Below are positions 3,335 to 41,500 of a stretch of 64,000 nucleotides of DNA, one piece after another (positions within the stretch are counted from its first letter, which is position 1; the number at the start of each line of letters is the position of its first letter). Origin of the DNA: Mobula hypostoma (lineage: Eukaryota); the NCBI RefSeq assembly GCF_963921235.1, contig NC_086108.1, positions 38,070,001 through 38,134,000 of the forward strand, written 5' to 3'. Position numbers and translations under genes: made by a program. The notes under the pieces are model-generated. The model was not told the origin of the DNA, did no database searches, and saw nothing but the letters and a program-made list of their open reading frames with translations.

Positions 3335-5188
3335 CTACTCCCACCGACCTGCACTCAGTCCATAAGCCTCCATTCCTTTCCTGTCCATATAGCTATCCAA
3401 TTTAACTTTAAATGACAACATCGAACATGCCTCTACCACTTCTGCTGGAAGCTCGTTCCACACAGATACCACTCTTTGAGTAAAGAAGTTCCCCCTCATG
3501 TTACCCCTAAACTTTTGCCCTTTAACTCTCAACTCATGTCCTCTTATTTGAATCTCCCCCATTCTCAGTGGAAAAAGCCTATCCACATCAACTTTATCTA
3601 TCCCGCTCATAATTTTAAATACCTCTATCAAGTCCCCCCTCAACCTTCTACGCTCCAAAGAATAAAGACTCAACTTGTTCAACCTATCTCTGTAACTTAG
3701 GAGATGAAACCCAGGTAACATTCTAGTAAATCTTCTCCGTACTCTCTCAAATTTGTTGAGATCTTTCCTATAATTCGGTGACCAGAACTGTACACAATAT
3801 TTCAAATTTGGCCTTACCAATGCCTTGTACAATTTCAACATTACATCCCAACTCCTGTACTCAATGCTCTGATTTATAAAGGCCAGCATACTAAAAGCTT
3901 TCTTCACCACCCTATCCACATGAGATTCCACTTTCAGGGAACTATGCACCATTATTCCTAGATCCCTCTGTTCTACTGCATTCTTCAATGCCCTACCATT
4001 TACCATGTATGTCCTATTTTGATTAGTCCTATCAAAATGTAGCACCTCACATTTATCAGCATTAAACGCCATCTGCCATCTTTCAGCCCACTCTTTTAAC
4101 TGGCCTAAATCTCTCTGCAAGCTTTGAAAACCTACTTCATTATCCACAACTCCACCTATCTTAGGATCATCTGCATACTTAATAATCCAATTTACCACCC
4201 CATCATCCAGATCATTAATGTATATGACAAACAACATTAGATCCAGTACAGATCCCTGAAGCACACCACTAGTCACCGGCCTCCAATCTGATAAACAATT
4301 ATCCACCACTACTCTCTGGCGTCTCTCATCCAGCCACTGCTGAATCCATTTTACTACTTCAATATTAATACCTAATGATTGAATCTTCCTAACTAACCTT
4401 CCGTGTGGAACCTTGTCAAAGGCCTTTCTGAAGTCCATATAGACAACATCCACCATTTTACCCTCGTCAACTTTCCTAGTAGCCTCTTCAAAAAATTCAA
4501 TAAGATTTGTCAAACATGACCTTCCACGCACAAATCCATGTTGACTGTTCCTAATCAGACCCTGTCTATCCAGATAATTATATATACCATCTCTAAGAAT
4601 ACTTTCCATCAATTTACCCACCACTGACATCAAACTCACAGGCCGATAATTACTAAGTTTACTCTTAGAACACTTCTTAAACAATAGAACAACATGAGCA
4701 ATATGCCAATCCTCCGGCATTATCCCCGTTTCTAATGACATTTGAAATATTCCGGTCAGAGCCCCTGCTATTTCCACACTAACTTCCTTCATATTCCTAG
4801 GGAATATCCTGTCGGGACCTGGAGACTTATCCACTTTTATATTCCTTAAAAGCACCAGTACTTCCTCTTCTTTAATCATCATAGTTTCCATAACTACCCT
4901 TCTTGTTTCCCTTACCTTGCACAATTCAATATCCTTCTCCTTAGTGAATACTGAAGAAAAGAAATTGTTCAAAATCTCCCCCATCTCTTTTGGCTCCGCA
5001 CATAGCTGTCCACTCTGATTCTCTAAGGGACCAATTTTATCCCTCACTATCCCTTTGCTATTAATATAACTGTAGAAACCCTTTGGATTTATTTTCACCT
5101 TACTTGCCAAAGCAACATCATATCTTCTTTTAGCTTTTCTAATTTCTTTCTTAAGATTCCTTTTACATTCTTTATATTCCTCGAGCAC
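3335..5188 (-). pseudogene. CR1 ORF2 reverse transcriptase portion (617 aa open)
   Basis: [38 protein letters not shown] and KYADD motifs. Separated from its endonuclease by the nested insertions. Confidence 0.9.
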
Positions 5189-5217
5189 CCCATTTACTCC
5201 AAGCTACACATATTTAT

Positions 5218-5253
<36 letters not shown>

Positions 5254-5699
5254 AAGTAGTCATACTTTATTGATCCTGAGGGAAATTGGTTTTTGTTACA
5301 GTTGCACCATAAATAATTAAATAGTAATATGTAAATTATGCCAGGAAATAAGTCCAGGACCAGCCTATTGGCTCAGGGTGTCTGACCCTCCAAAGGAGGA
5401 GTTGTAAAGTTTGATGGCTTCCTATAACGCTCACTGTTGCATCTCCGTGGAATGAGTCTCTGGCTGAATGTACTCCTGTGCCCAACCAGCCCATTATGTA
5501 GTGGATGGGAGACATTGCAACTTGGACAGCATCCTCTTTTCAGACACCACCATCAGAAAGTCCAGTTCCATCCCCACAACATCACTGGCCTTACGAATGA
5601 GTTTGATGATTCTGTTGGTGTCTGCTACCCTCAGCCTGCTGCCCCAGCACACAACAGCAAACATTATAGCACTGGCCACCACAGACTTGTAGAACATCC

Positions 5700-6621
5700 T
5701 GTGATGAAAGAAGGTTACAAAAGTACACATAAACTAAGATGTTAACTGTCCTGTGCTAGCACCAGTGGGATCAACAGTTGATCTGCCACCTGTCTTCAGG
5801 AGAGAGAGAGAAGTAAAACAATGGAGCAGCATTTGGAAATGTTAATGAAGAGACGAGAGAGTTTAACGGAAGGAGACACCGGTCTGAGTATTGTCAAGAC
5901 CGGCTCCTTTTGAAACCTGAACTGTTTGAAGTGTGATGGACAGGCGATACCCCAGCAGGGGGATAAAAAGGGACAGGTTCGCTAAAGCAATTGACACACG
6001 ACTCCACGTGGTAACGAGACCCTGAAAGCGGTGTGCCCCCCCCCACTAGCTGGTGGGAGTATTTTGGAGGTCTGGTCGCGGGACCAGCCATAGACGCACA
6101 GGGTGGAAAGGTACGGATCGGCGGGAAACTGGTGTGTGTGTCCGCCCTTGCCTAGGTGTTGGGTTCACCGCAGAAGAACGATCGTATCTGGAACGGAGGG
6201 GTCACAGTCGGTGACCTCAGAAGACATTACAAAGGGCTCGCCCGAAAACTGACTGCGAGGAATATTGAAGGTCTGTTTGGAATCCGATTTGAATATTCAT
6301 TCGTTCTCTCCCTCCCCACCCCACCCCCAACGGCACAACAATGATTACTGTGAACTGAACTGAACTCAATTGAACTGAACTTTGCGTCACTTGAAACTGG
6401 TCATTTACCCCTAGACGGCGATAGATTTTGATTGATCCTATTATCCTAGTTCTGTGTACATGTGTGTTTATCATTGCTGAACTGTTGCATTTATTATGCT
6501 TTTGATTAGAGTACTGTGTTGCTTATTTCTTTAATAAAACTTTCTTAGTTCCAGTAATCCAGACTCCAACTAAGTGTTCCATTTCTGCTGGTTTGACAAC
6601 CCAGTTACGGGGTACGTAACA
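5700..6621 (+). repeat. 5' LTR (922 bp) of the Gmr1-like element
   Basis: Direct repeat of 9736-10660; begins TGTGA and ends GTAACA. Confidence 0.95.
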
Positions 6622-6625
6622 TAAG

Positions 6626-6643
6626 TGGGGGCTCGTCCGGGAT
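6626..6643 (+). promoter_or_regulatory. Primer-binding site, tRNA-Pro
   Basis: TGGGGGCTCGTCCGGGAT is the canonical 18-nt complement of the tRNA-Pro 3' end, 4 nt after the LTR. Confidence 0.92.
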
Positions 6644-6719
6644 TTTGAACGCTAAATTTGGGATGGGGTAAATTGATTGGGTTAAAATTCCCGAAAGAAA
6701 GAAAAGACAAACAGCAGAA

Positions 6720-9560
6720 ATGGAGATTGAGGAATTTCTAAAGGTGCCGACCTTGGGGGCATTAGAGGATGCCAGGAAAGCGGAATTGGCAGCTGTGGCC
6801 AAATGGTTGAATCTTGTTAAGGGGAAGTCGACAATGAGGAGAGAGGAGATACATAGAGTTATCGTAGAGCACAATGTATCTAAAGGTGTGTTTCCCCAAG
6901 GGGAGCTGGAAGTGATATCTATTGGAAAACCTGGTGGAGACGCAGTACAGGTGCAGCTTGAAAAACTGAGACTCGAGCACGAGTTCCGGGTACGGCAGCT
7001 AGAACACGAAGAGAAACAGTTAGAATGGCAAGAGAGAGAGAGGGACAAACAGTTGGAGCGAGAAGAGAAACAGAGGGAAAGGGAATTCGAGCTGGAGAGG
7101 TTAAAGATAAGGGCAGAGCAGGGGCCCATGCCGAACCAAGGTGGAGGGTTCAGGGCGACCCAGGAGGTTAGGCTGGTTCCCCCATTTGACGATACCGATG
7201 TGGATCGGTACTTTCTCCATTTCGAAAAAGTTGCTGCAAGTCAGGACTGGCCGAGGGATAAGTGCGCTGTTTTGCTTCAGAGTGTACTTAAAGGGAAACC
7301 CCAACAAGCTTACTCGGCTTTGTCTGCAGAAGATGCCCAGAGGTATGAGGTGGTGAAAGAGGCCATCCTCAGGATTTATGAGTTGATCCTGGAGGCATAC
7401 CGGCAGAGGTTCCGGAATGCGAGGAAGCAGTGGGACCGCACGTATTTAGAGTTTGTCCATGAGATGCAGACATATTGTGAGTGTTGGTGCGCCTCGAAGG
7501 GGGTAGATGGGGATTATGACAGACTGCTACAGCTGATCCTGATTGAGCAGTTTAAAGATTGTGTCCCTGACGGTATGAGACCCTACCTAGATGAGAAAGA
7601 GGCAGCCATGTTAGCTACAACTGCTAAGTTAGCGGATGAGTACGCGTTGACGCATAAAATGAAGTTTGCCCCGAGTAAAGGCTACCAGAAGGGTAGTCAG
7701 GACGGTGGGGAGAGTCCGCCGGAAAAGTCAGTAAGTGAGCCGGGGACTAGTGAGAAGGATAAGGTAGACCAGGAGCAGTCTGGTACGAAGTCTTCTGGGG
7801 TCGTCTGTTATAATTGTGGGAAAGTCGGACACTTTGCGTCCAGGTGCTTTGCCCCAAAGAAGGAGACGGGAAAAGGAAAAACGGCGATTTCGACTGGCTG
7901 TATCGAGCTGATAAATGAACCGCTAGGAGGGGAAAGGTCTGCCAAAGTTCAGGAAGGGCGCGAGAGGTTTATCTCGGCCGGATTGGTGTCGGTGAAGGAA
8001 GGGTTAAACCCAGTTCCAGTACGGATCTGGAGAGACACGGGAGCGTGTCAGTCATTAATATTGAAGAGTGTGTTAGAGTTTAGTTCAGAGACCCAGGCTG
8101 GGGAGGTCAGGGTCAAAGGTATTGGGGAAGGGACAGAAGCAGTACCGTTGCACCAGATACACCTACAAAGCAACTTGGTCTCTGGACTAGTCACGATCGG
8201 GGTGAGGCCCGAATTACCGATGAAAGGCGTGGAAGTCTTGCTCGGTAGTGACCTCGCCGGGGGAATTGTGTTCTCGGCAGTGAGATTGATAGGTCAGCCT
8301 GCCAGCATTGAGGCCCCGCCCATGGACTCACAGGTTCATCCTGTTTGCGCAGTGACTCACTGTATGTCCAGAGACACTGCTGAGATGTTTCTACCAGCCT
8401 TGTATGAGGAGGGGGTAGAAAGTGAAAAGAAGGAGCGTAATGAAACAGGAGGAAGTGGGGAAATTAAGGTAGATTTATCATTAGAAAAGAAGGACTTTAT
8501 ACAGGCACAGGAGCAAGACGAGGAAACAACTCTCTGTGAAACAGAATTAGGAAGGGAGCGAGTGAATTATGGTGTGAAGGGGGAGGTACTAAGGAAGGAA
8601 GGGAGACCAAGTACCGCAGATGAGGAATGGGGGGTGGTGCAAAAGAGTTATGGGGATGAGATTTTTAACCTGGCCCACAAGGTACCCCTCGGTGGACATT
8701 TTGAGGTGCTGAAGGAAACAGTCGGCGGAGCCATGAGAGAGTTTTTCTGGCTGCACAGAAGGAAAGATGTTATTGATTATTGCAGACGCAAACTGAGACG
8801 GTCACAGGCTTTTGATATGCTAACAAACCTAGTCGGTGTTAGCGCGGAAATCAATGAAGCTAGGGTGCCACCTGATCAAGGGAAAAACCATTTTGAAAAG
8901 ATGGGTATGGTACCGACCAGATGGGAGAAGGCTACTGTTTTGGCCAGCTCTGCTGTTAAGGTCTCTCCCTTAATCCCCGAACAAAGCGACCCTTTAGGAG
9001 AGCTAATTAAATGGCTCGCACACGTGTGTTTGATTGTCCCGAGGCGATGCAAAGAACTAGGACGTTGGGTGGTGTTTGTCACGCTAGGTCAGCCTAGTGA
9101 GCAACAACCCTATAGAATGAGTAATTCAGTGACAAAAGGGCTAAAGAACACAGAAGTGTATATTGGCGATGTAATACGGCTCTCTGAAGCTAGCTTGATA
9201 GTGAACCTTGAAAAAAATGAGTTCGACCACACGAAGGTCACTTATCTGGGAATTGTGGTAACACAGGGGCAGCTGGCAGCAATGCAAGCTAAGGTGCGGG
9301 CTATCTCTGACATCCCAACCCCGACAGACAAGAAGGCCCTCAGAAGGCTCTTGGAGATTGTGGGCTACTGTAGGAAGTTTTGCAATGACTTTGCGGGTAC
9401 TACTAAGCCCTTGCGAAAGAAAACTAAGTCGGGATGGGGCGACCCTTGTTATCGTGGTCCGGGACGAAACCCAATGAGAGGTTACACTGATCACAATTCA
9501 CCAGTGTTTTCGGCCACTATGAAGGTTGCTAAGTTGGAGCCTGGTTTAGAGGATTATTAA
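6720..9560 (+). CDS. Gag (coiled coil, SCAN/capsid, CCHC knuckle) plus protease plus truncated INT/RT/RNase H polyprotein, 946 aa
   Basis: SCAN-like EAYRQRFR...LILIEQF...AKLADEY; CYNCGKVGHFASRC; protease IWRDTGA; integrase HH segment AHKVPLGGHF; RT remnants EVYIGDVI and KVTYLGIVV; RNase H remnant YTDHN. Confidence 0.85.
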   Translation: MEIEEFLKVPTLGALEDARKAELAAVAKWLNLVKGKSTMRREEIHRVIVEHNVSKGVFPQGELEVISIGKPGGDAVQVQLEKLRLEHEFRVRQLEHEEKQLEWQERERDKQLEREEKQREREFELERLKIRAEQGPMPNQGGGFRATQEVRLVPPFDDTDVDRYFLHFEKVAASQDWPRDKCAVLLQSVLKGKPQQAYSALSAEDAQRYEVVKEAILRIYELILEAYRQRFRNARKQWDRTYLEFVHEMQTYCECWCASKGVDGDYDRLLQLILIEQFKDCVPDGMRPYLDEKEAAMLATTAKLADEYALTHKMKFAPSKGYQKGSQDGGESPPEKSVSEPGTSEKDKVDQEQSGTKSSGVVCYNCGKVGHFASRCFAPKKETGKGKTAISTGCIELINEPLGGERSAKVQEGRERFISAGLVSVKEGLNPVPVRIWRDTGACQSLILKSVLEFSSETQAGEVRVKGIGEGTEAVPLHQIHLQSNLVSGLVTIGVRPELPMKGVEVLLGSDLAGGIVFSAVRLIGQPASIEAPPMDSQVHPVCAVTHCMSRDTAEMFLPALYEEGVESEKKERNETGGSGEIKVDLSLEKKDFIQAQEQDEETTLCETELGRERVNYGVKGEVLRKEGRPSTADEEWGVVQKSYGDEIFNLAHKVPLGGHFEVLKETVGGAMREFFWLHRRKDVIDYCRRKLRRSQAFDMLTNLVGVSAEINEARVPPDQGKNHFEKMGMVPTRWEKATVLASSAVKVSPLIPEQSDPLGELIKWLAHVCLIVPRRCKELGRWVVFVTLGQPSEQQPYRMSNSVTKGLKNTEVYIGDVIRLSEASLIVNLEKNEFDHTKVTYLGIVVTQGQLAAMQAKVRAISDIPTPTDKKALRRLLEIVGYCRKFCNDFAGTTKPLRKKTKSGWGDPCYRGPGRNPMRGYTDHNSPVFSATMKVAKLEPGLEDY

Positions 9561-9735
9561 AATAACACATATAAAAGGGACGGAAAGTGTGATTGCTGAA
9601 TGTCTGTCCAGGTGTTGACAACCTAAAATTCTCTGTATTAGCCAAATAGCTGATGAAAATGTATATTTGTGTGTATCTAATAATGTATTCATGCTTATAA
9701 TTTTTACCCCGGTAAAAATCCTTAAAGGAGAGGCC

Positions 9736-10660
9736 TGTGACGAAAGAGGGTTACAACAGTACACATAGACTAAGATGTTAACTGTCCTGTGCTAGCACCA
9801 GTGGGGTCAACAGTTGATCTGCCACCTGTCTTCAGGAGAGAGAGATAAGTAAGACAATGGAGCAGCATTTGGAAATGTTAATGAAGAGACGAAAGAGTTT
9901 AACGAAAGGAGACACCGGTCTGAGTATTGTCAAGACCGGCTCCTTTTGAACCCTGAACTGTTTGAAGTGTGATGGGCAGGCGATACCCCAGCAGGAGGAT
10001 AAAAAGGGACAGGTTCGCTAAGGCAATTGACACACAACTCCATGAGGTAACGAGACCCTGAAAGCGGTGTGCCCCCTGCACTAGCTGGTGGGAGTATTTT
10101 GGAGGTCTGATCGCGGGACCAGCCATAGACGCACAGGGTGGAAAGGTACAGATCGGCGGGAACCTGGTGTGTATGTCCGCCCTTGCCTGGGTGCTGGGTT
10201 CACCGCAGAAGAACGATCGTATCTGGAACAGAGGGGTCACAGTCGGTGACCTCAGAAGACATTACAAAGGGCTCGCCCGAAAGCTGACTGCGAGGAATAT
10301 CGAAGATCTGTTTGGAATCCGATTTGAATATTCATTCGTTCTCTCTCTCCCCTCCCCCTCCGCCCCCAACGGCACAACAGTGATTACTGTGCACTGAACG
10401 GAACACAATTGAACTGAACTTTGCGTCACTTGAAACTGGGCATTTACCCCTAGACAGCGATAGAGCTTGATTGATCCTATTATCCTAGTTCTGTGTACAT
10501 GCGTGTTTATCATTGCTGAACTGTTGCATTTATTATCCTTTTGATCAGAGTACTGTGTTGCTTATTTCTTTAATAAAACTTTCTTAGTTCCAGTAATCCA
10601 GACTCCAACTGAGTGGTCCATTTCGGCTGGTTTGGCAACCCATTTACGGGGTACGTAACA
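9736..10660 (+). repeat. 3' LTR (925 bp) of the Gmr1-like element
   Basis: Direct repeat of 5700-6621, preceded by a polypurine tract. Confidence 0.95.
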
Positions 10661-13288
10661 ATCCTCAGCATTGTCCGACGGATGTCAAAGGATCTCAGTC
10701 TCCTCAGGAAATAGATATTGTAGATCTCTCTCTTTTTCTGAACAAAGTTTCCAATATCCCTTGAAAACCATGGCTCTCTCAAACTTTTAAAGTTATAGTC
10801 ATACTTTATCTTAACCTTTCCTTTCAACCTAACAGGAACATAAAGTTTCTGTACCCTCAAAATTTCACCTTTAAATGACCTCCATTTCTCTATTACATCT
10901 TTCCCATAAAACAAATTGTCCCAATCCACTCCTTTTAAATCCTTTCACATTTCCTCAAAGTTAGCCTTTCTCCAATCAAAAATCTCAACCCTGGGTCCAG
11001 TCCTATCCTTCTTCATAATTATATTGAAACTAATGGCATTGTGATCACTGGACCCGAAGTGCTCCCCAACACATACCTCCGTCACCTGACCTATCTCATT
11101 CCCTAACAGGAGATCCAACACTGCCCCTTCTCTAGTTGGTACCTCTATGCATTGCTGCAAAAAACTATCTTGCACACATTTTACAAACTCCAAACCATCC
11201 AGTCCTTTTACAGAATGTCCTTCCCAGTCTATGTGTGGAAAACTAAAATATCCCACAATCACAACCTTGTGCTTACTACAAATATCTGCTATCTCCTTAC
11301 AAATTTGCTCCTCCAATTCTTGCTCCCCATTAGGTGGTCTATAATAAACCCCTATAAGCATTATTACACCTTTCCCATTCCTCAGTTCCACCCAAATAGC
11401 CTCCTTAGATGAGTCCTCTAATCTATCCTGCACCGCTGTAATATTTTCTCTGGCAAGTAATGCAACACCTCCCCCTCTTGCCCCTCTGATTCTATCACAC
11501 CTGAAGCAACAAAATCCAGGAATATTTAGTTGCCAGTCACACCCCTCCTGCAACCATATTTCATTAATAGCTACAACATCATATTTCCAGGTATCAATGC
11601 ATGCTCTAATCTCATCCACCTTTCTTACAATGCTCCTAGCATTAAAATAGATGCATTCAAGAAACTCTCCACCTCTTACTCTCTGTTTATCCCTAATGGT
11701 GCAAACAACTTTGTTATCTTTTTCTTCCTTGTCCCCTACACCTTCAGTCTGAGTGCTCCTGATCTCTGTCCCCTACCTATCCTCCCTCATACACTGTCTA
11801 CTAGCTTTCTCTATTTGTGAACTAACCACCTCTCTCCTAGTCTTTTCAATTTGATTCCCACCCCCAACCATTCTAGTTTAAAGTCACCTCAGTAGCCTTC
11901 GCAAATCTCCCCACCAGGATATTGGTCCCCCTAGGATTCAAGTGCAACCCGTCCTTTTTGTACAGGTCACACCTGCCCCAAAAGAGGTCCCAATGATCCA
12001 GAAATTTGAATCCCTGCCCCCTACTCCAATCCCTCAGCCACGCATTTATCCTCCACCTCATTCCATTCCTACTCTCACTGTCGCATGGCACAGGCAGTAA
12101 TCCCGAGATTACTACCCTTGCGGTCCTTCTTCTCAATTCCCTTCCTGACTCCCTATATTCTCCTTTCAGGACCTCTTCCCTTTTCCTACCTATGTCATTG
12201 GTACCCATATGTACCCTGACCTCTGGTTCCTCACCCTCCCACTTCAGGATATCTTGGACGCGGTCAGAAACATCCCGGACCCTGGCACCAGGGAGGCAAA
12301 CTACCATCCGGGTCTCCTGACTGCGTCCACAGAATCGCCTATCTGACCCCCCCAACTATCGAATCCCCTATTACTACTGCCCTCCTCTTCCTTTCCCTAC
12401 CCTTCTGAGCTACAGGGCCGGACTCTGTGCTGGAGGCACGGCCACTGTTGCTTCCCCCAGGTAAGCTGTCCCCCCCAGCAGCACTCAAACAGGAGTACTT
12501 ATTGTCAAGAGGCACAGCCACTGGGGTACTCTCTAGTACCTGACTCTTCTCCTTCCCCCCTCCTAACCATGACCCACTTGTCTGCCTCCCGTGGCCCCGG
12601 CGTGACCAACTGGCTGTAACTCCTCTCTGTCAACTCCTCAGTCTCCCTGACCAGACAAAGGTTACCGAGCTGCAGCTCCAGTTCCCTAACACGGTCCCTT
12701 AGGAGCTGCAGCTCGGCACACCTGGCACAGATGTGGACGTCCGGGAGGCTAGGAAACTCCAGGACCTCCCATATCCGAGACATAGAACAGCAAGCTGCCC
12801 TCACACTCATACTTGCCCCTTTCCTCAAATATCAGGAAAAATTGAAAACCACATCTACTTTGCCTCGCCCGTTTCCACCTAAGCCCGTTGAGCCAAAGCC
12901 CTTAAGCCTTCACTCTACTCCTGGCTCACTCCGCTGCCCACTGAATAAGGCTGTGTTCCTTTTAAATCTTCCGTGCTTCACTGCCCGACGTCAAACGCCT
13001 GCGCAGTCTCACCTCTCTTAACTCTGATGATAAGAAGAAAACATCAAAATGGCTCCCGTCACACTCCCGCTCCAATTCTCAGACTTCCTTCTCCAAATTA
13101 AAACCCAAATCAGGATTTCTGACCTTTTAAATCTTCCTCACTTTACTGCCCGACGTTACATGCCTGCGCAGTCTCGCCTCTCTTAACTCCAATGATAAGA
13201 AGAAAAAAATCAAAATGGCTCCTGACGCACTCCCGCTCCGATTCTCAGACTTCCTTCTTCTTTAAAAAGCAGAGCTCAAAGGTGGCTC

Positions 13289-16200
13289 TGTAACATGCAA
13301 AAGGGTTTCACTGCTGTGTAACATACTGTAAGGTTTCACTGATAATGTAATGGCTTCTCTGTAACAGCAATGTTTGGGTTATGACTAGAGATAACGGGGT
13401 TAGGAATGCTGTTGTTCTTTCTTGTAAGCTAGAAGAGAGATTTTTGCAGTCTTTTTGGCCGTGGAGAGATGAGGAGAGAAGACACGAATGGAGAGAGTGG
13501 GTAGACCACCAGATGGGGTGGACTTGGAGCGAGGATCCAAAAGGCAGCGACAATCGGAGGAGGTTGATGGTGGACGATCGACTTATCAATGAGCTCCAAT
13601 ATTGCGCAACAGAATGCTTAATAAGATTGGGCCCTTTTTTTTCTTTTTATTCGTTTCTTTACTAACCATATAGTCAAAGTAAGAATTATAAAGCTTAATC
13701 GTTTAACTGCATATCTGTTTATTATTTCAGGGTACTAATTTGTAACAGGGGACATATTGTGCAGCATCCACCCAAACGAGAATTTTAAGTTTGGCCAGGC
13801 TGGGGGCTATCGCCCCCTATATCCTATATTAAGCCACTAGCTGAAGCGGGAGTTACAATTGTGGGGGCTACGTTCGGGATTGATTCCTTTGGATGCTGGG
13901 TGATTACCCTGAGCAATGAACCAGTGGGGCACAAATCTGTACACCGGATGAATTGTTAATTCCACTGTTAAGTACTGTTGAAGTTGCGATTGTGGGTGGA
14001 GGTTTGATAAAATGGACAGCACAGCTCTCCTTTTAATGCAGACCAGCAATGAGGTAGCGGTAGCTGGCGGCGGAGATTTCAAAGACAGGGTTATCTCATT
14101 TCTGAGGAGTGAGGGGAACGAGTGGTCAGATGTGGAATGTCCAATTAGTCCATGTCCCCTGGTGAAGAGCGAGAACTCTGAGTTAGTATCCGCCCTTACT
14201 TCTCTGGCGAATAAATGGAAAACTCAGATTCAAAGTCCCAGCTATGACAGGCTCTGTGGAATATTGCCCACCCCTAAAGGGGAGGAAGAGTATGAGACTT
14301 GGGCGGAGCAGACCTTTTAGATGACTGGCAGTGCTCTGATGATGTAAAGCGACAGAGATTGATTGAGAGTTTGAGTGGGTAGGCCGCTGACGTTATGAGA
14401 GCCGTCAGGTCGAAATGTCCCGTAGCAACAGCTGTCAATTATCTGCAAGCACTGGACAATGCTTTTGGTCCGACTGGAAGCTCAATGGAGCTCATGGTGG
14501 GGTTTCAGAACACGTGTCAGGAGAAGGGGAGAAGCTTTCTGCTTCTATTTTTCAGCTAGAGAGGCAGCTAAATTGCTTGCAGTGCAGAGGGGTCATTTGG
14601 GCGGCTGAGGTGGATCAGTTAAGAATGGAGCAGATAGCCAGGGGTGTCTAGTCCCATGACCTGATTGCTTGGGGTCTCCGACAGTGTCGTAAGACATGCA
14701 CCCCTCCATCTTTTGTTGAGCTGATCAGAGAGTTACGGGAAGAGGAGAACACGGCGGAGGCACAGGAGGACTCTGTCAGCAGGGTACAGTCCTTGGTAGT
14801 AGTCCCCTGTGGTGAGGTGACCACAGATAGCTTACCCCAGGGAGCGGTAGAGGAGATCGTGGCAGAGTTGAAAGCGGAGATATGTCGGCTGTTATCAGCG
14901 GGTGTGACACGCCCCCCATGTGATGGAGCAGATGGGGGGCGGCGGATTTCCCAAGGGGACGAACAATGCGGAGGGCTGTTGGCAGCAAGTGTCATGCCAG
15001 AAGAAGACTGAGCCCCTGGGTAGCTCAGCAGGGAGAATCGTTGGGAAAACCTAGAGAAGACCCAGTGAGGGAATGACCTGGTGTCTCTGGGGGAACACGT
15101 TCCCAGCAATGTACCAAAGAACCCCTGAAAGCGAAAGACCCAATTCCTTAAGGCTAAGTGGGTTCATGCTCCAGTATGTCACTACGAATAGAGGGTATTT
15201 ATGCTAAAGCCATACTCGACACCAGGTCGTAGGTCACGTTGCTGTACCATTCGTTTTACAACCGGTATCTGAAATATTTACCATTGACACCATTCAGGGC
15301 ACTGGAGATCTGGGGGCTTAGTGCTAGTGATTATCCATACGACAGTTATTTGTCACTGAAGTTGGAGTTCTCAGAGGCCGAAGTGGGAGTGACTGAGGTC
15401 CTTGATACATTGGTGCTGGTTTGTCCGGATCCCGCTGAGAAGGGCGGCGTTTCAATTCTAGTGGCGATCAATACCCTTCTTGTGCGGAGGCTCATGGGGG
15501 CCTGCAAGGAGAAGACTCAAGAGAGCCTTCTGGGAACATTGTCCGTTCACCCAGGGTTTCGAGCTGCTTTTGAGGAAGTGCGTGGCAGCACTGGGCCGGA
15601 TACTGAATTTAAACAGGGGTTGTGTGGTTCACCCAGTTAAAGCCAATGGTGGTACGGCCCGGGGAAGTAGCGAGAGTGATGGAGACCCCTAAATTTCCCA
15701 GAATACCTGAGGGCAGGGCCCTCTTAGTGGATGCTCTGGACAACCACGAGGGGGAGTCAGGATTTCCTGCTCGGGTACTGGTGAGACCCAAATTGCAGAA
15801 GCCCTCAGATGTACAGGACACAGGATGGCAGTGATTGTCAGGAACACTACGAAGAGGAAGGTTACCTTCAAGCGGGGGATGCCCCTGGCGCATTTGTTCC
15901 CAGTGACAGTAATGTCTAGTGTCCCTGTGAGGCACGCCGGGGAGAAACTATTGGAAATGGGGGGAAAGTTGACCACTGAGTCATTCAACTTCGGGGACTC
16001 CCCGGTTTCTGTGGGTTGGAAGAGGAGGCTGGTAGAGAAGATGTTGAAGCTGGAAGGTGTCTTATCTACAGACGAGTTTGATGTGGGCTGTTCCAAGAGC
16101 ACTCGTCACACTATCCGGGTGAACGAGGACACCCCATTTAGAGAGAGGTCGTGGAGACTGTCTGCTGCAGAGGTTCAGGACGTTCGGCAGCATTTGTGTA

Positions 16201-19200
16201 AGTCGAAGGAAGCTGGGATCATCACCAAGTCCCGAAGCCCCTATGCGTCCCCGATAGTAGTAGCCCAAAAGAAGAATGGGAAGGTACGGATGTGTGTGGA
16301 CTATAGGACTCTGAACAGGCACGCCATCCCTGACCAGTATACTGTCCCGAGGACTGAAGATGTGCTGGCCTGCCTGAGTGGTGCAAAGTGGTTCAGTGTG
16401 CTGGACTTGAGGAGTGGATGTTACCAGATCCCCATGAGTGAGGCTGACAAAGAGAAAATGGCATTTATATGTCCCCTGGGACTTTTCCAGTTCTAAAGGA
16501 TGCCCCAGGGCATCTCGGGAGCTCCTGCAACCTTCCAGCAGGTCATGGAGAAGGTGGAGGGTGATATGAACTTCCTTGAGGTATTGGTAAATCTGGATGA
16601 CCTCATAGTATTTGGATCCACCTTGGAAGAATGTGAAGCAAGGCTGCTGAAGGTGCTGGGCCGTATGAAAGCTGAATGGTTAAAACTTTCCCTGGACAGC
16701 TGCCAGTTCTGCCAAACGTCTGTTAGCTACGTTGGGCACATAGTTTCATAGTTAGGGTAGCTACAGATCCAGCTTGGCCAGGACCCCAGACTTTGAGTGC
16801 TCTGCTCTCGTTCCTAGGGTTCTGTGGTTACTACCAGAGGTTTGTGAAAGGCTACACGAAAGTGAGTCACCCTGAGAATCAGCTTCTGTGCAGTTACCCT
16901 CGCTTGGGGAAGAAAGGGAGGGGGGAAAAGGACAGGAGAGTGGAGAGTATCTTAGCCCATCAGAGCTCTTTGAATCGAGGTGGGATGCAAAATGTGAAGA
17001 GGCCTTTCAGTCTCTGAAGGAGTTGCTGACTCAGGTGCCGGTGCTGGCTTTTGCAGACCCCCGGTTGCCGTATGTGCTGCACATGGATGCCAGCTGATAG
17101 GGGGCAGACACCGTATCAGGATCAGGGCTCCGGGTTGAGACCCGTTGGTCAGCCAGAGTCTGTCGCCCTCCAAGAGAAACTATCCCATGCACAAGTTGGA
17201 ATTTCTGGTGTTGAAATAGGCGGTGGCGGATAAGCTGAGTGACTACATCTACAGGGCCAAGTTTGAGGTGAGTACGGACAACAACCCCCTAACTTATATC
17301 CTGACCTCGACGAAACTGGATGCCACAGGCCATCGGTGGTGGCGGCGTTGTCGGCCTATGATTTCAGCCTGAAGTACCGGCTGGGAAGCTGGAACATTGA
17401 TGCTGATGCTTTGTCCTGATAGGCACATGAGGGACTAATCAGGGACAAGGAGTGGGAGAGCGTTCCTGCCCCGGGGGTGAAGGCCCTGTGTCAGTTTGCC
17501 ATCACCGTGAAGGCAGAGGGAAAGGAGGGGCAGGAACGAGCGGTGGATCAATTGGGGGCTTCCGATGATGCCATTTCCCAAGTTTACTGTAACCTGACTG
17601 CTCTGAAGACCAGTCAGCTGCCGGAGTTGAGTTCTGGGGAAGTGGCTGCTGCTCAGCGAGATGATCCGGACATCTGTCCCATTTGGACGGCGGTCAAAAA
17701 GGGAGACGTGGCTCAGGCAGAGAGGACAAAACATGCGTCGGTGCCTCCATTACTACGAGAATGGCCTCGGTTGGAGTTCAAGAACCAGATCTCATCCCGG
17801 ATCACGTTACCCCCACACCGACCCCGGCGTTGCCAGCTGGTTCTGCCTGCGAAGTATCGGAGGATGGCGTTGAAATCACTTCATGATGATTCTGGACATT
17901 TGGGAGTGGAAAAGACCTATGGATTGCTCAGAGACCAGTTTTACTGGCCCCAAATGAAGTCAGAGGTCGAAGAATACTGCAAGTTATGCTTTCGCTGCAT
18001 ATGGCAGAAGACACTGCAGTGCGGGCAGCTCACTTATCTCACTTGCAGAGTGCAAGGCCCCTGGACCTGGTGTGTATGGATTTCCTGTCAATAGAACCCG
18101 ATGCCAGCAACATGGTGAATGACTTAGTCACCATGGACCACTACACCAGATATGCTCAGGCTTTTCCTATCAAGGACCAGAGGGCGTCTACAGTGCCAAA
18201 GGTGTTATAGGAGAAGTATTTCATTTATTATGGCCTTCCCAGGCAGGTACATAGTGACCAGGGATGGGACTTTGAGAGCAGACTCATCTGTGAGTTACTG
18301 GGCATGCTTGGAGTCGAGAAGTTGAGGACCACACCCTATCATCCGTAGGGTGATCCCCAGCTTGAGGGGTTTAATCCGACCTTGCTAGATATGCTCGGGA
18401 CCCTGGAGATCAGCAAGAAGAGCAGGTGGAGTTAACATATTGAGCATCTGGTTCACAGTTATAATTGTACGCGAAATGAAGCTACTGGGTACTCGCCATA
18501 TTATCTGATGTTTGGGCGCGATGCGAGGTTGCCCATTGACTTTTGTTTTGGGACTGATGAGGACGACTTACCACTGAAGACTTATCTGAAGTATGTGTCT
18601 GACATGAGAAGAGAGTTGAAAAGGGCTTATGAATTAGCTGGGGTCGCGGCAGCCAAGCAGAATCAAGGGAATAAGAGGAGGTATGATCAAAAGGCGAGGT
18701 TCTTCCAACCCCTGCCGGGAGACAGAGTCCTTATAAGGAACTGGGGCGACCTGGACAGCATATGTTGGCAGATGGCTGGGCGGCTACGCCCTACGTGGTG
18801 GAGAGTCAGATGCCAAACCAACTAGTTTTCCAGGTGAAACCAGAGGATGGGAATACGCCTGTCAAGATTCTCCATCAGAACCCAGGTAGACCCAGAGCCA
18901 GACTTGGAGCCTACACCGAGTAAGAGGACCCATCGGAAACGCAGGTTACTACCGGGCCCCCAACAGGCAAGGTTAGGCCGGCCCCCACCCCTGAGAGCGA
19001 TACTGATTCGAAGGATGAGGACCTGGATGCGTGGTATATGCTGCCTTTTGCTAACTCCCCAGTGACTGAGGAAGAGACTCCCGGCCCTTCTCCCATTGAG
19101 ACAAGTGAAGTGGAGGGGGGTGCTATCTGTGGGCAGCCTGGGTTGCAGCGGGACTCTGCAGGGGAGGAAGCAGGGTTTGATCAGGGGACAGAGGGCTCCG

Positions 19201-20062
19201 AGTTGCAGGTGGGCACGATTGATAGGTCGGGGGAGGCCTCGCCAGGTAGACCAGAAGTATCCCCAGTAGTGTCGGAACCTGAAGAGTTAGATGATGGGGT
19301 GCAGAGGTCTCAGAGGATTAGGAGACAACCGGATAGGTTGGCCAACGTAGCACCAGGGGAACAGAGCGTGACCCCTACTGTGTTGGGGAACTATATCACT
19401 GCCTTTTACACCTGGATCGGGCTTTGTGTTTTGCAGGAAGGGTTGGGGAATTATCTCAACGTCATGAGGACATGACTAAATTTGGTAGGGGAGAGTGTAA
19501 CATGCTGTAAGGTTTCACTGCAGTGTAACATGCTGTAAGGTTTCACTGATAATATAATGGTTTCTCTGTAGCAGCAATGTTTGGGTTATGACTAGAGATA
19601 GCGGGGTTTGGAATGCTGTTGTTCTTTCTTGTGAGTCTGGAACAGAGATTTTTGCGGTCTTTTGCCAGGGAGAGATGAGGATAGAAGATGCGAATGGAGA
19701 GAGTGGGTAGACCGCCGGACGGGGTGGACTTGGAGCGAGGGTCCGAAGGGCAGCTACAATCGGAGGAGGTCGATGGTAAACAATCAGCTTATCAGTGAGC
19801 TCCAACATTGTGCAACAGACTGTTTCATAAGATTGGGCCCTTTTTTCCTTTTCTTTCATTCCTTTACTGATCATATAGTCAAAGTAAGAATTATAAAACT
19901 TAATCATTTAATCGCATATTGTATACTGTTTGTTATTTCAGGGTACTGATTTGTTACAGGGGACACATCGCGCAGCATCCACCCAAACAAGATTTGTTAA
20001 GTTTGGCCGGGCCAGGGGCTATCACCCCCTATATTAAGCCGCTAGCCGAAGTGAGAGTTACA
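13289..20062 (+). mobile_element. Gypsy LTR retrotransposon with PNMA-type gag, full length but degraded
   Basis: LTRs 13289-13857 and 19496-20062 (TGTAAC...GTTACA); PBS tgggggctacgttcgggat 13862-13880 (tRNA-Pro-like); PPT ggtaggggagag; gag GEEEYETWAEQT; RT (SPYASPIVV, RMCVDYRTLN, LDLRSGCYQI, NLDDLIVF); RNase H; integrase (LHDDSGHLG, LDLVCMDF). Many stops. Confidence 0.93.

Positions 20063-38329: not shown

Positions 38330-41500
<3,171 letters not shown>

Follow-up and report, generated by a model that had tools for sequence, protein, structure and literature searches.

An open reading frame across a decaying pol remnant in a high-copy, very probably non-autonomous Gmr1-type Gypsy family of mobulid rays

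Introduction

Non-autonomous long terminal repeat (LTR) retrotransposons that keep an open gag frame are already known, as is an in-frame gag-pol fusion that helps its own element in cis. According to excerpts of two reports (PMC6466679, PMC7411935), the mouse IAP 1Δ1 element, a betaretroviral endogenous retrovirus, carries a single 1.9-kilobase (kb) deletion that also cuts gag and leaves an open gag-pol fusion; the fusion aids retrotransposition in cis, and Gag and Pol are supplied in trans. The TR-GAG elements of plants, as described in part of PMC4350172, are non-autonomous LTR elements with one Gag open reading frame (ORF), LTRs, a primer-binding site (PBS) and a polypurine tract (PPT). 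The zebrafish families BHIKHARI-1 and BHIKHARI-2 retain an intact gag and, as non-autonomous LTR elements, depend on a partner not yet seen (excerpt of PMC12067270). The subject of the present work is an LTR element in a 64,000-nucleotide (nt) stretch of the devil ray Mobula hypostoma (contig NC_086108.1, positions 38,070,001 to 38,134,000 of the forward strand; this whole stretch is termed the window, and positions are counted from its first letter). The element, at 5700-10660, is a complete Gypsy element of 4,961 nt in the Gmr1-like order, in which a SCAN-type capsid is followed by protease (PR), integrase (IN) and reverse transcriptase-RNase H (RT-RH) (excerpt of bioRxiv 10.1101/2025.03.03.638093).

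Autonomous Gmr1-like Ty3/Gypsy elements have the same SCAN capsid, PR, IN and RT-RH, and the window element is collinear with their proteins of 1,475-1,608 amino acids (aa), such as P0021, but it is ~600 aa shorter and cannot be autonomous. By analogy, the family to which it belongs appears to work most like IAP 1Δ1, although here the evidence is an evolutionary signature only; in contrast to the single deletion of IAP 1Δ1, the ray element keeps the whole of Gag and the protease, and its serial deletions are arranged on a ladder in at least two species. TR-GAG elements, in the excerpt cited, are Copia-related, shorter than 4 kb and chosen for lacking similarity to protease, integrase, RT and RNase H, whereas the ray element exceeds that length, has an intact protease and keeps ~420 pol codons in frame. 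The BHIKHARI families, lokiretroviral and with no pol left, are a gag-only vertebrate end state with a shown host function, according to the part of their description cited, whereas no host function has been shown for the ray family. What the ray family adds is a set of graded intermediates, within a single family of which thousands of variants have been sampled. No description of it was found in the open-access literature, Repbase and Dfam lying outside the scope of the search.

Results and Discussion

A collapsed pol within one open reading frame

A preliminary description of the window had reported an uninterrupted 946-aa ORF with a complete Gag and protease and a dead pol, and each of these points was borne out (Table 1). 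A Pfam scan of the ORF, a profile check of the kind suggested in that description, recovered SCAN and zf-CCHC, together with a weak Integrase_H2C2 match at aa 641-690 that fell below the cutoff, and returned no match to rve, RVT_1 or RNase H. The protease retains its DTG motif and 17 of 19 conserved residues. The element is without an integrase DDE core, an RT YxDD motif and an RNase H domain, and by these criteria it is not autonomous.

The remnant downstream of the protease (aa 521-946) was searched, profile-free, against 1.84 billion representatives. After the Mobula matches came full single-ORF proteins of ~1,475-1,608 aa in the order SCAN-PR-IN-RT-RH, and the window protein is collinear with the best of these, P0021, interrupted by four gaps, J1 to J4. 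At J1, after aa 690 (8789/8790), ~288 aa are lost, including the end of the integrase zinc finger, the DDE core and the greater part of the C-terminal domain. J2, after aa 800 (9119/9120), removes ~126 aa of the RT fingers and palm; J3, at ~9173-9177, removes 18 aa directly past YIGD, the counterpart, in an alignment via P0020, of YIDD in a full-length protein of Gmr1 order; and J4, after aa 910 (~9450-9461), removes ~91 aa of RNase H. All four large deletions are in frame and the final break is not, the last ~10 codons of the ORF lying outside the ancestral frame. The claim that the frame stays open across large deletions therefore holds for J1-J4 and not for this last segment. The same description saw only stitched remnants downstream; four deletions could indeed be mapped, but aa 691-800 are not junk, being the integrase C-terminal tail, a linker and the RT N-terminus, with 41% identity over 104 aa to P0086 of Hypanus sabinus, an undeleted fragment. 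In the RT thumb remnant, aa 820-905 resemble the RT chains of Ty3 and murine leukaemia virus.

The remnants, collinear with P0021, also agree with the integrase-before-RT order proposed earlier. Judged from sequence, the element is a Gmr1-like Gypsy by descent (SCAN capsid, PR-IN-RT-RH order, Gypsy-type RT), an assignment that rests on order, collinearity and the top full-length matches, ~110 aa of RT being left. An AlphaFold2 model built on a 26-row alignment was uninformative (mean predicted local distance difference test score, pLDDT, 34.3), the coiled coil of Gag being the sole stretch beyond a few residues with pLDDT >70.

The signals required in cis are kept. The LTRs, the PBS and the ATCC target-site duplication are intact, as had been claimed, and the PPT is slightly decayed: the purine tract at 9724-9733 is followed by CC, and one contig of run X11 instead has a run of purines that reaches the LTR. 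Of the 919 sites at which the two LTRs align, 47 are substituted (transitions, 31; transversions, 16; Kimura two-parameter distance 0.053), and there are two true indel events, both within simple-sequence tracts. The 5.3% difference over the full LTRs matches an earlier estimate by eye of ~5 per 100, and on this clock the divergence since insertion is ~2.7% per site.

The junctions are shared across a family

Evidence on the family came from annotated RefSeq proteins and from contigs of sequencing runs. Queries with the remnant yielded 7 of 5,391 candidates and 7 of 1,102, all of them RefSeq proteins of M. hypostoma or M. birostris, and cluster look-ups added 11 further family proteins. The same deletion junctions are present in the RefSeq proteins of both species. 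The collapsed form was not found outside Mobula among the protein search matches, and scanning of viral, prokaryotic-genome and metagenome contigs gave no related DNA.

Words of the element occurred in runs of four organisms with a best share of 0.43, which is the expectation for relatives that lack the 2.7% private changes of this copy (0.973^31 = 0.43). No RNA run was listed among those with such words, and run X9 was flagged as probably DNA. At 80% likeness, the internal region 6622-9735 gathered 14,884 contigs in DNA run X1 and 8,004 in X2; the summed depths, which are not a copy number, were mostly 1e5-5e5, against 13-60 for single contigs. From these data we infer that the family is very large; dips in depth at 8390-8597 are given no weight. 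J1 is bridged gap-free by contig X11-13, and J2/J3 by contigs X11-15, X2-23 and X2-24. None of the 32 contigs shown, out of >24,000 pieces, bridges J4, for which the support comes from proteins only. The stretch missing at J3 is still present in P0020 and in loose ends at 9173 in X1, so there is an intermediate form in which J1 and J2 had arisen but J3 had not.

The deletions are thus not private to the window copy. This check, at which the earlier proposal of a non-autonomous multi-copy family could have failed, left it standing, with junctions shared among Mobula proteins and J1-J3 bridged by contigs. The element very probably belongs to a non-autonomous LTR family, one of the Gmr1 type of Gypsy elements that is present in high copy in mobulid rays (devil and manta rays).

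The shared C-terminal stop was found in 12 of 24 family rows, and six of the 24, the window copy included, are open from the start to that stop (939-1004 aa). The same stop is retained over ~28% amino-acid divergence. The repeat number of the Gag coiled coil varies strongly among copies, and five of the six coiled-coil joints listed skip 33 or 54 nt, in frame.

Family ORFs are listed in RefSeq as host proteins, two of them with host gene names, which makes the family an annotation trap: P0002 is annotated as MACC1 isoform X1 (M. hypostoma) and P0015 as UBE2G2 isoform X1 (M. birostris). This suggests chimeric gene models or LTR-driven transcripts.

Capsid and protease are constrained while the remnant drifts

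In the tree of the remnant, the family forms a ladder of P0020, the window copy, P0185/P0186, P0187, P0188, P0004/P0005, P0018 and eight young copies (5 of 14 branches starred). The family carries shared in-frame deletions that have destroyed integrase, RT and RNase H, and in its evolution one source element has succeeded another. From the window node, the number of changes per column on the trunk is ~0.30 for the remnant and 0.08 for Gag-protease, and the window tip carries 0.061 and 0.062, respectively, with differing row sets in both comparisons. By parsimony, trunk changes number 14/288 in capsid plus protease and 38/286 in the remnant (p=4e-4); the private changes of the window copy number 14/288 and 18/286 (p=0.47). 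The capsid and protease that the element was said to supply for itself are therefore conserved on the trunk.

Conserved residues were defined from 16 full Gmr1-order proteins. In every tier that is sufficiently covered, capsid and protease retain 87-94% of theirs. Up the ladder, conserved residues of the zinc-finger region fall through 75, 60, 49 and 45%, those of the linker through 71, 50, 41 and 36%, and those of RNase H through 57, 38 and 26%; the thumb decays most slowly within the remnant (83, 76, 69 and 69%). Higher on the ladder, the zinc-binding Cys and the YIGD and YTDHN motifs are eroded further.

The window copy and P0018 differ at 91 of 329 remnant positions. The BLOSUM62 scores of these substitutions average -0.44, and a neutral simulation gave -0.49 +/- 0.16; the same simulation expected 5.1 stops, and none was observed. 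Remnant changes did not significantly spare conserved sites with any of three partners (p=0.056, 0.16 and 0.48). Capsid and protease have been constrained on the trunk, and the remnant amino acids drift while the catalytic motifs keep decaying.

The remnant nevertheless appears to stay in frame

Fourteen length changes 3' of the protease are common to at least two rows, and all are in frame: J1-J4, smaller deletions (~10, 9, 7, 4, 5, 7 and 6 aa), a duplication of 6 aa and two insertions of 1 aa each. The null in-frame share was put at 0.33-0.54; of the repeats in the ORF at which a template switch might occur, 24-54% would preserve the frame, as do 4 of the 7 low-depth joints outside the coiled coil. 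Even at p=0.5, the probability of 14 in-frame events out of 14 is 6e-5. Contigs from the runs, unlike annotated proteins, are not selected for open frames. Within the ORF, their indels were +3, +6 and +15, together with a -1/+1 pair spaced by 12 nt, and 1-2-nt indels occurred only at the last codons and past the stop (12 of 24 indel rows shown). Selection on the frame is probably real. Of the selection on an open frame proposed earlier, what stands is that shared length changes are in frame on the amplifying lineage; the rows themselves are biased towards open frames.

The -1/+1 pair of relatives, at 8866-8878, rewrites four codons before the frame is restored. The window copy and P0020 appear to retain the older reading, and two rows break at the same A-run.

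A probable helper-dependent family selected for its open frame

Slightly less firmly, these observations are read as those of a helper-dependent, non-autonomous family that is selected for an open frame and not for the protein sequence of the remnant. Source elements would produce their own Gag-protease, which would favour packaging of their own RNA, and RT and integrase would be borrowed, in particles of mixed origin, from a full-length relative of the Gmr1 type. Full Gmr1-order elements have one ORF, so there is no natural stop past the protease, and the remnant may be retained as translated filler. The selected trait would then be passage of the ribosome to near the 3' LTR: the stop now lies ~1.0 kb from the poly(A) signal, against ~2.3 kb if it came after the protease. 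If the frame is selected, a modest preference goes to RNA stability or a requirement for translation in cis, as in IAP 1Δ1, as the cause. Selection for ribosome passage would best account for a region that drifts in sequence and becomes shorter, and in which breaks are tolerated only towards the end.

A more specific picture is tentative and on the doubtful side: a single, L1-style succession of source elements under selection for the frame alone, in at least two ray species, constituting the Gag-protease-donating half of a two-part system whose other half is a helper with a single ORF; >400 codons would drift neutrally and shrink by serial deletion and yet must stay translatable. If the frame alone is indeed selected, the family would be a natural stepwise record of the passage from an autonomous to a gag-only element. 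One ORF would separate selection on protein (capsid and protease), selection on frame (remnant) and no selection (inserted copies), and the open remnant hints that translation itself aids the spread of such parasites. Whether translation of the full RNA is needed for Gypsy mobilisation, and how gag-only parasites originate, can be tested on the two public Mobula assemblies.

Several observations weigh against this account. The family rows are annotated proteins in which broken-frame lineages are under-sampled, so the 14 events are partly in frame by construction. P0004/P0005 share a frame break near aa 857 and P0007/P0190 share one near aa 721, which may reflect slippage at base runs or broken sub-lineages that transpose, and the family's own ORF end lies outside the ancestral frame. 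The trunk past the window node expects just 2-2.5 stops (P0 0.08-0.13), which is not significant alone, so the stop deficit is weak evidence. A McDonald-Kreitman-like contrast of private and trunk changes gave p=0.15. On the trunk, the protease has 10/114 changes with one outgroup (6/114 with the other), against 9/103 in the RT-thumb remnant, so the trunk contrast is mainly carried by the capsid. Ty1 and HIV-1 Gag are without cis-preference (excerpt of PMC3945221), so a cis requirement is not general. In the window copy, four apparently private deletions are all in frame (neutral probability 0.012-0.06); a few chance open-frame survivors are expected in a very large family, but this is still the least comfortable point.

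The helper is a further difficulty, as no full-length ray helper was found in the protein searches. The search for longer proteins gave one unrelated match, and its floor of 1,657 aa excludes most full Gmr1-order proteins, so this blank is uninformative on the helper. In the Gag-protease tree, the sister group consists of P0006 and P0022, the former with the start of an integrase core and a zinc finger that is intact; the two may represent the full-length relative that would act as the helper. The candidate helpers P0006, P0022 and P0086 were found only as fragments.

Alternative explanations

An unlikely alternative is that only Gag-protease is selected, and that the open remnant is an artefact of template-switch deletions biased towards the frame and of the annotation of long proteins. 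The RefSeq origin of the rows, the upper in-frame share of 54% among long-range microhomologies in the ORF, the frame-breaking ends shared by P0004/P0005 and by P0007/P0190 and the non-significant trunk stop deficit are all consistent with it. Against this, the 14 shared events are improbable even if half of all deletions fell in frame, the DNA runs show indels that are in frame or compensated within the ORF and break the frame only at and past the stop, and the same stop is kept across the divergence of the family.

More improbable is that the remnant is a functional tail, acting as a spacer in protease activation, as a recruiter of helper RT or integrase through its thumb or zinc-finger remnant, or as a Gag-donor tail that corrects the Gag:Pol ratio of a single-ORF helper. 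The thumb does decay least (with the trunk rate given above), the IAP 1Δ1 fusion protein acts in cis according to the excerpts cited, and with one of three partners conserved sites tended weakly to be spared (22% of them changed, vs 32%; p=0.056). However, the other two partners gave p=0.16 and 0.48, the types of substitution are neutral, the zinc-binding Cys, YIGD and YTDHN decay up the ladder, and P0004/P0005 have lost most of the thumb.

The fate of the window copy itself bears on the last alternative. Private sites were those at which nearly all X1 and X2 depth differs from the window; 33 were used (40 of 418 variant rows shown, minus 3 outside the ORF, 1 absent from X1 and 3 with <85% share). 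They comprise 9 synonymous and 24 non-synonymous differences (29% synonymous expected), or 4:9 in Gag-protease and 5:15 in the rest of the ORF. The private rate of ~0.05-0.06 per residue agrees with the LTR clock. Twenty-three private changes fall in aa 140-525, and 35 of 40 conserved capsid residues are kept, against 94% in young copies. The neutral probability that no stop arose by substitution is 0.063, to be multiplied by that of the four in-frame deletions, so the open frame of this copy called for luck. The window copy is an old, neutrally decaying insertion and not a host gene. Chance survival, which the preliminary description had allowed for, is probably right for this copy and not for the family. 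The other outcome it had offered, early domestication of the locus as a host SCAN/Gag gene, is very improbable: frame survival through the divergence since insertion, the four in-frame private deletions and the capacity of active gag-only families to serve the host in zebrafish (excerpt of PMC12067270) are in its favour, but the private differences are those of neutral decay throughout, Gag-protease included, at equal rates in capsid-protease and remnant, conserved capsid residues have been lost, both LTRs are kept, the element is nested in debris of long interspersed nuclear elements (LINEs), and chance survivors are expected in so large a family.

Features of the element and its surroundings

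Table 1. Features of the ray element and of the nest in which it lies (positions in the window)
Feature	Position	Strand	Basis or remark
Target-site duplication ATCC, left copy	5696-5699
5' LTR, TG...CA, 922 nt	5700-6621	+
PBS, 18 nt, tRNA-Pro type, 4 nt past LTR end	6626-6643	+	window sequence
Single ORF, 946 aa, Gag-protease and in-frame pol remnant	6720-9560	+	no internal stop
Gag coiled coil, E/R/Q-rich, aa 74-133	6939-7118	+
SCAN = capsid C-terminal domain, aa 225-313	7392-7658	+	Pfam PF02023, E 4.8e-11
CCHC zinc knuckle, aa 362-376	7803-7847	+	Pfam PF00098
Aspartic protease, aa ~411-525; DTG 8034-8042 (aa 439-441)	7950-8294	+	P0021 alignment
Integrase zinc-finger remnant, both His and first Cys	8640-8789	+	then J1
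Integrase C-terminal tail, linker and RT N-terminus	8790-9119	+	P0086 likeness; then J2
RT palm scrap; YIGD 9159-9170 (aa 814-817)	9120-9176	+	then J3
RT thumb/connection remnant, aa 820-910	9177-9449	+	then J4
RNase H scrap; YTDHN 9483-9497	9462-9524	+
RNase H C-terminal residues, outside ORF frame	9523-9612	+	tblastn frame 1 vs ORF frame 3
Family-wide stop	9558-9560	+	shared C-terminus in 12/24 family rows
PPT, slightly decayed	9724-9733	+
3' LTR, TG...CA, 925 nt; AATAAA at 10572	9736-10660	+
Target-site duplication ATCC, right copy	10661-10664
Triple nest: CR1 split by a short LINE 3' fragment that ends in a trinucleotide tail and is in turn interrupted by the LTR element	3335-5203, 5200-5695, 10665-11772	-

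The PBS 18-mer is identical to a sequence termed complementary to tRNA-Pro in an excerpt of PMC1769482. This Gypsy element thus has, 4 nt from the end of its LTR, the tRNA-Pro primer site that murine leukaemia viruses also use. No tRNA genes were found within the 64-kb window.

The LTR element is the youngest layer of the LINE-debris nest, having inserted into a short LINE 3' fragment that lies between the halves of a minus-strand CR1 split around it (matches 11622-10714 and 5182-4097). We take the short fragment to be L2/Rex-like. The CR1 is the oldest layer and yet holds an open frame of 622 codons from stop to stop. The neighbouring CR1 with a 617-aa frame in the preliminary description is thus real as an open frame, but its length is revised and the CR1 is the host of the nest. 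A minus-strand ORF at 11873-12355, directly upstream of the CR1 endonuclease, is presumably SGNH/GDSL-esterase-like and probably the CR1 ORF1.

A second, unrelated and broken Gypsy lies at ~14000-19500 (+), with RT 5' of integrase (matches 16086-18735). It was considered as a helper and rejected, since its RT precedes integrase and its identity to a Gmr1-order protein is only ~32-44%. At 39309-39773 and 39989-40516 (+), near-identical tandem copies lie 680 nt apart, and we assume them to resemble a C-terminal fragment of Tc1/mariner transposase.

Among the Gmr1-order proteins of other animals, P0050 (Procambarus clarkii) and the P0040 cluster (Diadema setosum; 9 members, 693-1,245 aa) are seemingly without internal pol blocks and open, and in P0040 the end of integrase is joined almost directly to the RT thumb. 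Such forms may have collapsed independently in the same way, or they may be artefacts of gene modelling.

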